Source: Escherichia coli
GTDB taxonomy: Bacteria > Pseudomonadota > Gammaproteobacteria > Enterobacterales > Enterobacteriaceae
Direction: 5' to 3' (one strand)
DNA length: 64,000 nt
Assembly: GCF_024223415.1 (NCBI RefSeq)
Contig: NZ_CP100500.1
The notes beneath the pieces were generated by a model that did not search any database, was not told where the DNA came from, and saw only the letters and a list, made by a program, of their open reading frames with translations. The translations under genes were made by a program, and so were the position numbers. This document shows, one piece after another, positions 890 through 54,918 of this stretch. Every line of letters starts with the position of its first letter. Within the stretch, counting starts at the first letter, position 1.

Positions 890-3394
890 ATGTCACAAAC
901 TATCGACCTGACCCTGGACGGCCTGTCCTGCGGTCACTGCGTTAAACGCGTGAAAGAAAGTCTCGAACAGCGCCCGGATGTGGAACAAGCGGATGTGTCT
1001 ATCACTGAAGCGCACGTTACCGGGACTGCCAGTGCAGAACAGCTGATCGAAACCATCAAACAAGCGGGTTATGACGCATCTGTAAGCCACCCAAAGGCTA
1101 AACCGCTGGCGGAGTCATCAATCCCGTCGGAAGCACTGACAGCGGTTTCTGAGGCGCTTCCGGCAGCGACCGCCGATGACGATGACAGCCAGCAGTTGCT
1201 GCTGAGCGGCATGAGCTGCGCCAGCTGTGTCACCCGCGTACAAAATGCGTTGCAAAGCGTACCGGGCGTCACTCAGGCACGGGTAAACCTGGCGGAGCGT
1301 ACTGCGCTGGTGATGGGCAGTGCCTCCCCACAAGATTTAGTGCAGGCGGTGGAAAAAGCGGGCTACGGTGCGGAAGCGATTGAAGATGACGCGAAACGCC
1401 GCGAGCGCCAGCAAGAAACCGCCGTCGCTACGATGAAGCGCTTCCGCTGGCAGGCAATTGTTGCATTGGCTGTGGGTATCCCGGTAATGGTCTGGGGGAT
1501 GATCGGCGATAACATGATGGTCACCGCTGACAACCGCAGCCTGTGGTTGGTTATCGGCCTGATAACCCTGGCAGTGATGGTTTTCGCCGGCGGCCATTTT
1601 TACCGCAGTGCATGGAAAAGCCTGCTGAACGGTGCAGCGACGATGGATACGCTGGTGGCGCTGGGTACTGGCGTGGCGTGGCTCTATTCGATGAGCGTCA
1701 ACCTGTGGCCGCAATGGTTCCCGATGGAAGCGCGACATCTTTATTACGAAGCCAGCGCGATGATTATCGGTCTGATTAATCTCGGCCATATGCTGGAAGC
1801 GCGCGCACGTCAGCGTTCTTCAAAGGCGCTGGAGAAATTACTCGATTTAACTCCGCCGACGGCGCGCCTGGTTACTGACGAAGGTGAAAAAAGCGTGCCG
1901 CTGGCGGAAGTTCAGCCAGGCATGCTACTGCGCCTGACGACGGGCGACCGCGTGCCAGTAGATGGCGAGATTACCCAGGGCGAAGCATGGCTGGATGAAG
2001 CGATGCTGACGGGCGAACCTATTCCGCAGCAAAAAGGCGAAGGCGATAGCGTCCATGCCGGTACAGTGGTACAGGACGGTAGCGTGCTGTTTCGCGCCAG
2101 TGCGGTTGGTAGCCATACCACGCTATCAAGGATCATTCGTATGGTGCGCCAGGCCCAGAGCAGTAAGCCAGAAATCGGTCAGCTGGCGGATAAAATCTCA
2201 GCCGTATTTGTGCCGGTAGTAGTGGTTATTGCGCTTGTCAGTGCGGCAATCTGGTATTTCTTTGGTCCGGCACCGCAGATTGTCTATACCCTGGTGATTG
2301 CCACCACGGTGCTGATTATTGCCTGCCCGTGTGCGCTGGGGCTGGCGACGCCGATGTCGATTATTTCCGGCGTCGGGCGGGCGGCTGAGTTTGGCGTGCT
2401 GGTGCGGGACGCCGACGCGCTGCAACGCGCCAGTACACTCGATACCGTCGTGTTCGATAAAACCGGGACGCTGACCGAAGGGAAGCCGCAGGTTGTCGCA
2501 GTGAAAACATTTGCTGATTTTGACGAAGCGCAGGCGCTGCGTCTGGCGGCGGCACTGGAACAAGGTTCCAGCCATCCGCTGGCACGGGCGATCCTCGATA
2601 AAGCAAGCGATATGCAGCTGCCGCAGGTCAACGGTTTCCGCACATTGCGCGGGCTGGGCGTGAGCGGTGAAGCTGAAGGTCATGCGTTATTGCTGGGCAA
2701 TCAGGCGCTGTTAAATGACCAGCAAGTTGATACTAAAGCGATTGAAGCAGATATTTCAGCTCAGGCATCGCAAGGGGCAACGCCTGTGCTGCTGGCGGTT
2801 GACGGGAAAGCGGTAGCCCTGCTGGCTGTACGCGATCCGTTGCGTAGTGATAGCGTGGCGGCGCTGCAACGTCTGCATAAAGCGGGATATCGTCTGGTGA
2901 TGTTGACCGGGGATAACCCAACCACCGCCAATGCGATCGCCAAAGAAGCAGGGATTGATGAGGTGATCGCCGGGGTGCTGCCGGACGGTAAAGCCGAAGC
3001 GATTAAACGCCTGCAAAGTGAAGGACGTCAGGTGGCAATGGTGGGCGACGGCATTAACGACGCGCCAGCGCTGGCTCAGGCGGATGTCGGCATTGCGATG
3101 GGTGGCGGCAGTGATGTTGCTATTGAAACCGCGGCGATTACCCTGATGCGCCATAGCCTGATGGGTGTTGCGGATGCGCTCGCTATTTCCCGCGCAACGC
3201 TGCGCAACATGAAGCAGAACCTGCTCGGCGCGTTTATCTACAACAGTATCGGTATTCCGGTTGCCGCCGGTATTTTGTGGCCGTTTACTGGAACACTGCT
3301 TAACCCGGTGGTTGCCGGAGCGGCAATGGCGCTCTCGTCGATTACCGTAGTGAGTAACGCCAACCGGTTGCTGCGGTTTAAACCGAAGGAATAA
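890..3394 (+). CDS. copA: Cu(I)-exporting P-type ATPase CopA, 834 aa
   Basis: ORF track; two N-terminal GxxCxxC metal-binding domains, CPC, DKTGT and GDGIND motifs. Confidence 0.97.
1090..1096 (+). other. Programmed -1 ribosomal frameshift site in copA (slippery C CCA AAG) giving the short CopA(Z) chaperone
   Basis: cac cca aag gct at codons 67-70; the -1 frame reads aaa ggc taa and stops at once; reported for E. coli copA. Confidence 0.6.
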
Positions 3395-3399
3395 GTACG

Positions 3400-3524
<125 letters not shown>

Positions 3525-3592
3525 TGAACTGCACCCCAAATGTTGGACATAATCTGACATCTGAAGGTGCAGTTTATGAAACATTCATTTGA

Positions 3593-4096
3593 AGTAAAAC
3601 TGCCGCTGTAAATCATTACCTGGCCGGTCATGCAGGCATCATTTCTACGGCAAAACTCTTTCAACTTTCTCACACCAGCCTCTCACACTGGATTAATCTT
3701 TTTCTTCTTCACGGTCCTCAGGCACTGGATTGCAGACACAAGCGTAGCTATTCTCCTGAAGATAAACTTTGCGTGGTTCTTTATGCTCTCGGGCATTCTG
3801 AGTCTCTACCCCGGGTAGCTGCCCGGTTTAACATTCCCAGCCACAACATGGTTAAAAACTGGATAAAAGGCTACCGCAAATCTGGTAATGAGGCCTTTAT
3901 CAGGCGCAGGAAGGAGAAAAGCATGACCCGTTCTGATGATACCCATGAAAACGAGGCAAACATGACGCCGGAAGAGATGAAGAATGAGCTGCGTTATCTT
4001 CGCGCAGAAAATGCATATCTGAAAGCCATGCAGGAGCATCTCCTGGAAAAAAAGCGCCAGGAGCTGGAGAAAAAACGAAAGTCATCCAGAGCCTGA
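3593..4096 (+). CDS. IS3-family transposase OrfA (HTH); frame open from 3593 but no in-frame ATG, ORF track starts it at GTG 3773; likely 5' frameshifted
   Basis: Translation ..VNHYLAGHAGIISTAKLFQLSHTSLSHWINLF..RVAARFNIPSHNMVKNWIKGYRKSGNEAF.. plus leucine-zipper-like C-terminus; upstream ATG near 3576 is in another frame and stops after 11 codons. Confidence 0.6.
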   Translation, partial: SKTAAVNHYLAGHAGIISTAKLFQLSHTSLSHWINLFLLHGPQALDCRHKRSYSPEDKLCVVLYALGHSESLPRVAARFNIPSHNMVKNWIKGYRKSGNEAFIRRRKEKSMTRSDDTHENEANMTPEEMKNELRYLRAENAYLKAMQEHLLEKKRQELEKKRKSSRA

Positions 4097-4200
4097 AGTG
4101 CGGACACTGCCAGTCTGACCTGTTAAAGGCTGCAGGGCTGGCCAGAAGCACGCTGTACTACCAGCTGTCACTGCAGAAGGCTAAGGACAAGTATGCTGAT

Positions 4201-4955
<755 letters not shown>

Positions 4956-5122
4956 GTAAGCGTCGCATCAGGCAATGGTACTCGGATGCCGGATGCGGCG
5001 TGAACGCCTTATCCGGCCTACGGTTCAGGCACAGGTTTGTAGGCCTGATAAGACGCGTAAGCGTCGCATCAGGCAATGGTGCTCGGATGCCGGATGCGGC
5101 GTGAACGCCTTATCCGGCCTAC
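4956..5122. repeat. REP/BIME cluster, right part, immediately downstream of ybaQ
   Basis: Repeated gccggatgcggcgtgaacgccttatccggcctac and gcctgataagacgcgtaagcgtcgcatcaggc units. Confidence 0.8.
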
Positions 5123-5623: not shown

Positions 5624-6418
5624 ATGGATCTGTTGTACCGGGTAAAAACGCTTTGGGCCGCGCTGCGCGGTAATCATTACTCCTGGCCTGCCATCGATAT
5701 CACCCTCCCCGGCAATCGCCATTTTCATCTGATTGGCAGTATTCATATGGGTAGCCACGATATGGCTCCCCTGCCCGCCCGTTTGCTCAAAAAGCTCAAA
5801 AACGCCGATGCGCTGATCGTCGAGGCGGATGTTTCCACCAACGATACGCCTTTTGCTAATTTGCCTGCCTGCGAGGCGCTGGAAGAGCGCATTAGCGAGG
5901 AGCAACTCCAAAAACTGCAGCACATTAGCCAGGAGATGGGCATTTCTCCCTCACTCTTTTCTACCCAACCGCTGTGGCAAATCGCGATGGTTCTTCAGGC
6001 GACGCAGGCACAAAAACTGGGGCTGCGGGCAGAATACGGTATCGATTACCAGCTATTGCAGGCGGCGAAGCAACAACATAAACCCGTGATTGAACTGGAA
6101 GGGGCGGAAAACCAGATTGCCATGTTGCTCCAGCTCCCTGACAAAGGACTGGCGCTGCTGGACGATACGCTGACCCACTGGCATACCAACGCACGGTTGC
6201 TGCAACAAATGATGAGCTGGTGGCTGAATGCGCCGCCGCAAAATAATGAAATAACGCTGCCCAATACGTTCAGTCAGTCGCTGTACGATGTGCTGATGCA
6301 TCAGCGAAATCTCGCCTGGCGGGATAAATTACGCGCCATGCCGCCGGGGCGATATGTGGTCGCGGTCGGTGCACTACACCTGTATGGAGAAGGGAATTTG
6401 CCGCAAATGTTGCGCTAA
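5624..6418 (+). CDS. ybaP: TraB-family protein YbaP, 264 aa
   Basis: ORF track; recalled protein and synteny. Confidence 0.9.
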   Translation: MDLLYRVKTLWAALRGNHYSWPAIDITLPGNRHFHLIGSIHMGSHDMAPLPARLLKKLKNADALIVEADVSTNDTPFANLPACEALEERISEEQLQKLQHISQEMGISPSLFSTQPLWQIAMVLQATQAQKLGLRAEYGIDYQLLQAAKQQHKPVIELEGAENQIAMLLQLPDKGLALLDDTLTHWHTNARLLQQMMSWWLNAPPQNNEITLPNTFSQSLYDVLMHQRNLAWRDKLRAMPPGRYVVAVGALHLYGEGNLPQMLR

Positions 6419-6500
6419 AAAAATGGCCAATATCGCTATTGGCCCGTCAAAGAGGAATTTCATTTTTTTATTATTATGCCGTCACTTTAAGCGACGGTGT
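6417..6500 (-). ncRNA. chiX: Hfq-dependent sRNA ChiX (MicM/SroB)
   Basis: Reverse complement reads ACACCGTCGCTTAAAGTGACGG...GGCCAATAGCGATATTGGCCATTTTTTT, matching recalled ChiX; ybaP-ybaK intergenic; 3' T-run overlaps the ybaP stop. Confidence 0.9.
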
Positions 6501-12149: not shown

Positions 12150-12262
12150 TTGCCGGATGTAAAATATGAAAAATATGTAGGCATGATAAGACGCGCCAGC
12201 GTCGCATCAGGCATCGAGATGCCAAATGCCAGATGCGGCGTGAACGCCTTATCTGGCCTACG
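12150..12262. repeat. REP/BIME elements between convergent ybaL and gsk
   Basis: gcatgataagacgcgccagcgtcgcatcaggc and gccagatgcggcgtgaacgccttatctggcctac. Confidence 0.8.
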
Positions 12263-19577: not shown

Positions 19578-21515
19578 TCAAATGGGGCGGATACTTTCTT
19601 CATCCAGCTCCGCATCGAAAAACCGACGCAGGGTCTGAATATTATTATCCGCAATAATGGACTCGCGCGCCTGCGCAAGTTTTTCTTCGTATATCGCCTG
19701 ACGCCACTCCAGCGGCGTACGCACCGCGGGATTATCATCTTCAACGATAGTCAGTTCAACCGTTGAACCTTTTAACATGCTCAACGCTTCAGCCAGTTTT
19801 TGCTGTGCACCGCGGTTGTTCAAATGCCGCTGAGAGGAGCGCAAATGCAGACATACTGCGTTGTCGCTCTCCTCTTTCCAGGCATTTAACGCCACCTGTT
19901 CGACCAGTTTTGGTAGCGAAAGTTGGCTCACCTGTGCCGCCCACGGGTCGCGCTCAATGGCTTCTGCCGCTAGCTTCGCCGCCAGTTCCGGCGTTTTTTC
20001 ATGTTCCAGCGCTTTTTTCAGCGCCTTCGGCGTGGCGACCACTTCTTTTTGCTGTATCACCGGAGTGGTCGCCTTCCAGCGATACGCTTCTTTTTTGGCT
20101 GGCGCTTTTTCCAGCGCCGATGGCACCGGACGCGCCTGAACGCGATCGGTGACCGAAGCCAGTCTTTCCAGCGCAGCGTTATTCACCGGCCGCGCGCGGG
20201 TAGCGGCTGCCGGTTCACTCTTTTTTGCTTTGGTTGCTCCCTGCACGCGCTGCAACTGCTGGCGCGCCGCCAGCACCTGGCTGGTGGTTTCCGGGAGCGG
20301 TACAGTCGGTGCCTGCTGCGGCGCTGATTGCGGTTGCGGTTGCGGCGGCACCTGGGTTGGCGTCATTACTGCCGTTGGCGCGACGGGTGCAAAGGACTGG
20401 CGTGGCACTTCTGGCTCAGGCAGCGGCATACGCGGATGGAACGCCAGCGCGCGCAGCAGCGTCATCTCAACGCCCATGCGGCGGTCCGGCGCATACGGTA
20501 ATTCTTTGCGACCAATCAACAGCGTCTGATAGTAAAGCTGAATATCCGTCGGCGGTATGGTGCGCGCCAGTTCACGCATCCGCAGCTCGATGGCGGCCAT
20601 GTCGTTGCCAAGTGCAGCAGGCGAAAGTTGTACCATCGCAATACGATGCAACAGGCCGAGCATTTCCACCAGCAACGCTTCCCACTCGATACCACGGGCA
20701 GCGGCTTCATTAATCAGCGCCATTACGCGCTCGCCGTTGGCCTCGACCATCGCTTCAACCAGCGACAGCGCCTGATCGTCGTCAAGCGTACCCAGCATCG
20801 CACTGACCGCCTGGGTTGAAACCTGGCCGTCACCGCTGGCAATCGCCTGGTCGGTCAGACTTAAGGCATCTCGCAGGCTGCCTTCAGCGGCGCGCGCCAG
20901 CAATTGCAGCGCCCGCGGCTCGTGAGCGATATGTTCTTCATTGAGGATGTGCTCAAGTTGATGGCGAATTTGCTCGACATCCAGCGCCTTGAGATGAAAT
21001 TGCAAACAGCGCGACAAAATCGTCACCGGCAATTTCTGTGGATCGGTCGTCGCCAGCAGAAACTTAACGTGCTCCGGCGGCTCTTCAAGAGTTTTTAACA
21101 GTGCGTTAAAGCTGTGGCGCGACAGCATATGCACTTCGTCGATGAGATAAACTTTGAAACGACCACGCGCCGGAGCGTACTGGACGTTATCCAGCAGGTC
21201 GCGAGTGTCTTCAACTTTGGTGCGCGAGGCGGCGTCGATTTCAATCAGATCGACAAAGCGCCCCTGCTCGATTTCACGACAGTTATCGCACACGCCGCAC
21301 GGCGTCGCGGTAATGCCGGTTTCGCAGTTTAGCCCCTTCGCCAGCAGTCGGGCGATAGAGGTTTTTCCGACGCCACGGGTACCGGAAAAAAGATAAGCAT
21401 GATGAATACGCCCTAACGACAAGCCGTTCGCCAGTGCGGTCAGCACATGTTCCTGGCCGACGACGTCAGCAAAGGTTTGTGGGCGCCATTTTCGGGCTAA
21501 GACCTGATAACTCAT
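19578..21515 (-). CDS. dnaX: DNA polymerase III tau/gamma subunit DnaX, 645 aa in this sequence
   Basis: ORF track; Walker A GTRGVGKT; internal recoding site. Confidence 0.96.
   Translation of the reverse strand: MSYQVLARKWRPQTFADVVGQEHVLTALANGLSLGRIHHAYLFSGTRGVGKTSIARLLAKGLNCETGITATPCGVCDNCREIEQGRFVDLIEIDAASRTKVEDTRDLLDNVQYAPARGRFKVYLIDEVHMLSRHSFNALLKTLEEPPEHVKFLLATTDPQKLPVTILSRCLQFHLKALDVEQIRHQLEHILNEEHIAHEPRALQLLARAAEGSLRDALSLTDQAIASGDGQVSTQAVSAMLGTLDDDQALSLVEAMVEANGERVMALINEAAARGIEWEALLVEMLGLLHRIAMVQLSPAALGNDMAAIELRMRELARTIPPTDIQLYYQTLLIGRKELPYAPDRRMGVEMTLLRALAFHPRMPLPEPEVPRQSFAPVAPTAVMTPTQVPPQPQPQSAPQQAPTVPLPETTSQVLAARQQLQRVQGATKAKKSEPAAATRARPVNNAALERLASVTDRVQARPVPSALEKAPAKKEAYRWKATTPVIQQKEVVATPKALKKALEHEKTPELAAKLAAEAIERDPWAAQVSQLSLPKLVEQVALNAWKEESDNAVCLHLRSSQRHLNNRGAQQKLAEALSMLKGSTVELTIVEDDNPAVRTPLEWRQAIYEEKLAQARESIIADNNIQTLRRFFDAELDEESIRPI
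20220..20226 (-). other. dnaX programmed -1 frameshift site (A AAA AAG) with downstream stem-loop, producing gamma
   Basis: Plus strand cttttttgc is the reverse complement of gcAAAAAAGag; GC-rich stem-loop at about 20170-20215. Confidence 0.8.
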
Positions 21516-37044: not shown

Positions 37045-37158
37045 TGGGTGGGGGCCCTGCCAGCTACATCCCGGCACACGCGTCATCTGCCTTGGCTGCT
37101 TCCTTCCGGACCTGACCTGGTAAACAGAGTAGCGTTGCGGGAGAACCAACAGAGCCCC
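37045..37158 (-). ncRNA. ffs: 4.5S RNA, SRP RNA component
   Basis: Reverse complement begins GGGGGCTCTGTTGGTTCTCCCGCAACGCTACTCTGTTTACCAGGTCAGGTCCGGAAGGAAGCAGCCAAGGCAGATGACGCGTGTGCCGGGATGTAGCTGGCAGGGCCCCCACCC, matching recalled 114-nt 4.5S RNA; ybaA-atl intergenic. Confidence 0.93.
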
Positions 37159-54731: not shown

Positions 54732-54813
54732 AGAGCTCTCTCTTAGTTTAATTTCCGCCAGGTAATCAGATGACACGACTGTGCTTCACGCCATCTATTA
54801 ACATGTACGTCAG

Positions 54814-54842
54814 TATATGGGGATGTTTCCCCCACATTCAAC
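54814..54842 (-). promoter_or_regulatory. Sigma-32 heat-shock promoter of lon (TTGAA -35, CCCCATAT -10)
   Basis: Minus strand reads cgttgaatgtgggggaaacatccccatatactgacg upstream of lon. Confidence 0.75.
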
Positions 54843-54918
54843 GCCGAGAATAGAGGAAAAATTAAAGGGGAGATAAAATCCCCCCTTTTTGGTTAACTAA
54901 TTGTATGGGAATGGTTAA

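Follow-up and report, generated by a model that had tools for sequence, protein, structure and literature searches.

Programmed −1 ribosomal frameshifting in the copA gene of Escherichia coli K-12, with CopA(Z) as its product, is said to have been described by Meydan et al. (2017, Mol Cell) and Drees et al. (2017, Mol Microbiol). Only three programmed frameshifts in non-mobile E. coli genes are well characterised, those in copA, dnaX and prfB (PMC10861913). Standard decoding of copA gives a protein of 834 amino acids and frameshifting one of 70 (PMC5009743), and a 70-aa product that depends on the slippery heptamer has been reported for K-12 (PMC9548414, PMC6182138, PMC5009743, PMC7558416). 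Few heptamers are as prone to shifting in E. coli as C_CCA_AAG (PMC5009743), ribosome profiling and an independent study both support the frameshift (PMC9548414), the copA pseudoknot causes ribosome stalling in single-molecule assays (PMC6182138) and the nascent CopA peptide contributes to the shift (PMC7558416). As to function, reviews describe the short CopA product as binding Cu(I) and either protecting the cell or delivering copper to the pump (PMC7558416). Production of the short protein, the efficiency of the shift, the effect of the nascent chain and the chaperone function are all taken here from this literature, which concerns a sequence identical to ours. In RefSeq, the MG1655 genome (NC_000913.3) carries a two-piece joined CDS, 511168..511379, inside copA, annotated as 'soluble Cu(+) chaperone' (YP_009518752.1).

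Several other systems resemble copA in part. The tau/gamma frameshift of dnaX is likewise a chromosomal −1 event at an X_XXA_AAG heptamer that involves tRNA-Lys and yields a truncated functional protein, but its heptamer is A_AAA_AAG and its Rfam element a stem–loop, whereas copA has C_CCA_AAG, a pseudoknot and a contribution from the nascent chain (PMC7558416). Stand-alone chaperones of the CopZ/Atox1 type, such as those of Enterococcus hirae and Bacillus subtilis, are like the short copA product in being proteins of about 70 aa with a heavy-metal-associated (HMA) domain and a CxxC motif that work with the CopA pump (PMC7558416); copZ is a separate gene, however, whilst the copA chaperone is a recoding product of the mRNA for the pump itself. 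The orfA–orfB pairs of IS3-family elements (IS1397 in the present case) resemble copA in slipping by −1 at a heptamer that ends in A_AAG, although their slip joins two ORFs to make a longer protein where that of copA truncates. Finally, the orthologous human copper ATPase ATP7B has been claimed to possess a −1 site beginning CCCAAAGG (primer sequence), but re-examination did not support the claim: ribosome density does not fall, synonymous sites are not conserved and the reporter assay gave an artefact (PMC9548414).

The copA gene described here lies in a 64-kb window of E. coli DNA, the whole of the 64,000-nucleotide stretch that was analysed. On the ORF list its zero-frame reading frame occupies 890–3394 of the + strand, as do all the copA features below, and encodes an 834-aa Cu(I)-exporting P-type ATPase in which Pfam identifies two HMA domains together with E1-E2_ATPase and Hydrolase domains. 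The first HMA domain (PF00403, residues 8–62) is encoded by 911–1075. Beyond it, codons H67, P68, K69 and A70 read cac cca aag gct (1088–1099), the translation of 890–1102 ending in ...SVSHPKAK. The slippery heptamer C_CCA_AAG is in the zero frame at 1090–1096 and is the sole in-frame X_XXY_YYZ heptamer of copA; a slip here would take P-site pairing from CCA to CCC and A-site pairing from AAG to AAA. Read in the −1 frame from 1090, the sequence is CCC AAA GGC TAA, that is, P, K, G and stop, with the codon for Gly70 and the TAA together at 1096–1101. The recoded CopA(Z) ORF of 70 aa thus spans 890–1101, with 890–1096 in the zero frame and GGC TAA in the −1 frame. In this product, Pfam places the HMA domain at residues 8–62 (E = 1.2e-13), with the metal-binding motif CGHC (C14-G-H-C17) inside it, and PDB sequence matches are to copper-ATPase metal-binding domains and CopZ-like proteins. 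A single HMA fold, a CxxC metal site and a length of about 70 aa, the features of the CopZ-like class, are all present.

Comparison with K-12 shows the two sites to be the same. The MG1655 joined CDS (212 nt) corresponds to 890–1101 of the window, with the same gene, position (codons 68–69), heptamer and 70-aa product; the −1 stop and the downstream 70 nt are also identical, and the predicted products are again of 70 and 834 aa. Across 819–1219, five bases differ from MG1655, all of them synonymous or nearby SNPs at 964–988 that leave the cassette free of any change. The initial annotation had placed a slippery heptamer at copA codons 67–70 and proposed that a −1 slip leads to a stop and to an approximately 70-aa product consisting of the first metal-binding domain; the letters at 1088–1099 agree with this exactly, as do the TAA at 1099–1101 and the HMA match. 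That the site matches the reported E. coli copA frameshift and is intact in this strain, as the initial annotation also held, is borne out by the MG1655 CDS and the unchanged cassette. Within the species, 5422 of 5426 complete E. coli genomes match at 95–100% identity and have an annotated copA. All 5422 are at least 99% identical to the 101 nt at 1070–1170, and 39 of 40 evenly sampled records, K-12 derivatives among them, are 100% identical over this segment. Control 101-nt segments near the cassette are nearly as invariant, though (5377 and 5221 of 5422 genomes; 1894 of 5422 for a further control), so conservation within E. coli has little power.

The surroundings of copA differ from those in K-12. 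Homology with K-12 begins at 819 (junction 818/819), one base before the TTGACC at 820–825 that we take to be the −35 element of the CueR-dependent copA promoter. The DNA upstream of 819 (1–818) is rare, finding a match in 30 of 5426 genomes and matching over most of its length in 16. The genome of strain GF60 has it as the terminal part of a P2-like prophage (ogr/Delta, gpD and tail genes), standing where the glsA-side neighbour is usually found; the upstream flank of the copA promoter is therefore foreign DNA in the present strain. On the other side, an IS3-family IS1397 element (about 3424–5106) lies between copA and ybaQ, a site that it occupies in about 41 of 5426 genomes. Its orfA (3773–4096) contains an in-frame A_AAA_AAG heptamer (4048–4054) from which a −1 slip would lead into the frame of the integrase-core orfB (4201–4923), and this would be the third −1 frameshift site of the window. 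The dnaX frameshift element is present as well, on the − strand at 20181–20245 (Rfam RF00382, 96.8 bits), with an in-frame A_AAA_AAG starting at 20226 and a −1 stop one codon beyond it; copA and dnaX, the two chromosomal genes of E. coli known for −1 frameshifting, are thus found in the same window. Other Rfam matches at the gathering score, at 5042–5119, 6417–6500 (− strand), 12180–12258 (− strand), 37055–37151 (− strand) and 54803–54898, are to naRNA4 (two sites), sroB, small SRP RNA and sraA.

Conservation beyond E. coli was examined in two sets of loci. A genome scan gave 80 loci, but was dominated by the universal P-type ATPase motif MVGDGIND and contained three close relatives (Citrobacter, Enterobacter and Photorhabdus), the remaining 77 loci serving as a negative background. 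Twelve more loci were added by a protein search and look-up of the encoding contigs. Eleven of these were usable; the Plesiomonas fragment (L094) begins at a contig end, without the region of the first metal-binding domain (MBD1), and was left out. The named relatives in the comparison are Citrobacter, Enterobacter, Cronobacter, Erwinia, Photorhabdus and Proteus. Of the 12 fetched contigs, 10 (L083 and L085–L093) have an interrupted copA, with one ORF for its N-terminal part and a second, further on, for the ATPase core. Such split genes, which are sequencing errors or pseudogenes and as such a caveat on the comparison set, dominate it because the 250-aa query picks out short database entries.

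In this sample, which is small and made up of sequences related to one another, an in-frame C_CCA_AAR is present in all 15 related copA genes, as C_CCA_AAG in ten and C_CCA_AAA in five. The codon before the heptamer is NNC in every case, although it specifies seven different amino acids (His, Ser, Tyr, Arg, Pro, Leu and Phe), and in every case the −1 frame offers a single sense codon before TAA or TGA, with zero-frame codon 70 always NCT and the next two bases AA or GA. In the codon alignment, codons 67, 68, 70, 73, 80, 84 and 85 all have a third-position pairwise identity of 1.00, compared with 0.2–0.5 at the invariant HMA residues A41, I53, G60, A63, C110, C113 and V117. The contrast is sharpest at codon 67, where amino-acid identity is 0.16 and third-position identity 1.00, and at codon 70, where amino-acid identity is 0.21 and both second- and third-position identity are 1.00. 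This third-position pattern is the signature of selection at the RNA level beyond the needs of the protein, and the bacterial copA site passes, unlike the ATP7B claim, the test of synonymous-site conservation.

An alignment of these genes predicts a structure downstream of the heptamer. A 6-nt spacer (1097–1102) separates the heptamer from the conserved core of stem 1, whose 5′ arm (CCGCUGGCGG, core CCGCUG) occupies 1103–1112 and pairs with a 3′ arm (CUGACAGCGG) at 1136–1145. The 5′ arm of stem 2 (GUCGGAAGC, 1126–1134) lies within the stem 1 loop and its 3′ arm (GCUUCCGGC) at 1156–1164; the two stems cross, and the fold is therefore a pseudoknot. Its predicted start 6 nt 3′ of the heptamer falls in the range of about 5–9 nt looked for in a stimulatory RNA structure, and in E. 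coli stem 1 could be extended by pairing AAA (1100–1102) with UUU (1146–1148). RNAalifold, which does not draw pseudoknots, found stem 1 on the whole alignment without its having been supplied beforehand and found stem 2 once the 5′ arm of stem 1 was omitted. In pair counts over the 15-sequence alignment, 92.4% of cells are paired, against 17–43% when partners are slid by 1–3 columns, compensatory changes are seen in 7 of 17 pairs and no shuffle attained the observed value for four of five pairing measures, the structure tested having been read from the same 15 sequences. The six-pair core of stem 1 contains three compensations in three sequences (A-U in Erwinia, A-U in P0057 and U-A in P0044), whilst compensatory changes in stem 2 come from Proteus and Photorhabdus. 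The initial annotation had named conservation of the heptamer and of a downstream structure across copA orthologues as the means of checking its claim, and both are seen: C_CCA_AAR is kept throughout, and the two stems are predicted with compensatory changes.

Folding energies of the single sequence are less informative. The nested minimum free energy (MFE) of 1097–1170 gives a modest z = −1.3, stem 1 alone z = −0.6 to −1.8 and stem 2 as a hairpin −20.8 kcal/mol with z = −2.8; the z-scores of the nested MFE are too weak to provide any argument for the structure. An outer helix in the MFE fold, formed with a second CAGCG at 1162–1166, is not conserved in the alignment and was rejected in favour of the covarying stem 1. 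Rfam 15 contains no family that matches the copA element at either gathering or permissive thresholds.

Could a heptamer of this kind simply occur by chance and have no role in recoding? Taken alone, it could. CCCAAAG occurs five times in the window against 8.9 expected, at or below chance frequency, so the frequency of the heptamer is of no use as evidence; in-frame X_XXY_YYZ heptamers number 28 in the 17,113 codons of the 42 long ORFs of the window, about 1.6 per 1000 codons, with about 1.4 expected for a gene the size of copA. Only at copA and dnaX, however, is a heptamer among these 28 of the form XXXAAAG and followed by a −1 stop exactly one codon on. A chance origin also leaves out of account the invariance of heptamer, NNC codon and −1 stop in all 15 genes across an otherwise variable linker, the covarying pseudoknot downstream and the identity of the sequence to the experimentally characterised K-12 site, and we regard it as having next to no probability. 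The whole configuration of heptamer, −1 stop and conservation is, judged from sequence, not a product of chance. Transcriptional slippage at the copA site was also considered, and was rejected on the grounds that the runs are only three bases long. Constraint on the linker at the protein level, through the motifs P-K, P-L-T, PEALTAA and LPA, would be another way to account for conservation after MBD1 without RNA signals, and P68, K69, P72 and L73 are indeed conserved to 90% or more across 36 protein fragments whose linker is otherwise variable. Yet conservation is strongest at third positions and at the codons where the amino acid varies (67 and 70), the base pairs covary and the conserved peptide motifs fall exactly on the stem arms, making an explanation at the protein level very improbable.

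A different proposal would have the short MBD1 protein arise mainly from a truncated copA transcript or from processing, with the structure acting as an attenuation or RNA-processing signal rather than as a stimulator of frameshifting. The title of Drees et al. suggests a route of this kind, and in E. coli the sequence UUUCUG comes after stem 1. The U-run is not conserved in the alignment, however, and a simple scan of the + strand from 600 to 1500 found no site resembling an intrinsic terminator. Nor would a truncated transcript account for the invariance of the heptamer, for the NNC codon or for the −1 stop, and ribosome profiling and reporter work credit frameshifting (PMC9548414, PMC6182138, PMC7558416). 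As the main source of the protein, this route appears improbable; it is more likely to be complementary to frameshifting than an alternative to it.

Frameshifting is thus the reading that we prefer: with a probability of roughly 95%, this stretch of copA would be the programmed −1 ribosomal frameshift cassette of E. coli, intact in the present strain. Our own analysis bears on its anatomy, its identity with K-12, synonymous-site conservation and covariation in both stems. The mechanism that we propose begins with a ribosome positioned at C_CCA_AAG, its P site holding tRNA-Pro paired with CCA and its A site tRNA-Lys paired with AAG. The pseudoknot, 6 nt past the heptamer, would resist unwinding and so promote slippage, with the nascent CopA peptide, as the literature has it, acting as an added stimulator. 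In a fraction of ribosomes both tRNAs would then re-pair one base back, on CCC and AAA, and these ribosomes would read GGC (Gly) and stop at the UAA at 1099–1101, releasing the 70-residue CopA(Z), the first HMA domain alone, as a predicted soluble Cu(I) chaperone. Those that stay in the zero frame would go on to produce the 834-residue pump.

The cassette is also found in orthologues that possess three or four HMA domains, which keep the heptamer, the −1 stop and the pseudoknot (L005, 999–1106; L085, 900–1007; L089, 696–803; L092, 897–1004; L093, 501–608). In four of these five it comes after the second or third HMA domain, whilst in L093 it follows the first, with two more downstream. At codons 138 in Photorhabdus and 137 in P0052, it would give a two-HMA product, and at codons 204 in Proteus vulgaris and 205 in P0038 a three-HMA product; in P0062 it is at codon 72 and two further HMA domains would stay on the pump. 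In every case, the linker that holds the cassette precedes one or more HMA domains that are kept on the pump. No equivalent site is seen at the end of the first HMA domain in about 65 more distant P-type ATPase loci. Several of these, L011, L036, L065 and L068 among them, instead encode a small HMA protein in an ORF of its own immediately 5′ of the ATPase gene. Two distant loci have in-frame heptamers after the first HMA domain, A_AAA_AAA at codon 61 in Propionigenium maris (L066), one codon from a −1 stop, and C_CCA_AAA at codon 73 in Lachnotalea glycerini (L032), 21 codons from a stop; these may be chance occurrences in AT-rich genomes or independent analogues.

The copA recoding site is already known and annotated in K-12, and finding it here adds no new biology. 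There are nevertheless consequences for annotation and for method. Automatic annotation gives copA only, and the 70-aa CDS should be entered as it is in K-12. The comparative data provide a clean positive control for tests of recoding by synonymous-site conservation and covariation, in contrast to the refuted claim for ATP7B. For the enteric family as a whole, we would suggest tentatively, as a possibility on the doubtful side of even, that the cassette may be a common module rather than a peculiarity of E. coli, with larger products in the multi-HMA orthologues; tandem-domain soluble copper chaperones made by recoding may perhaps be undescribed. For E. coli itself, recoding of copA explains how a copper chaperone is produced in an organism without a copZ gene.
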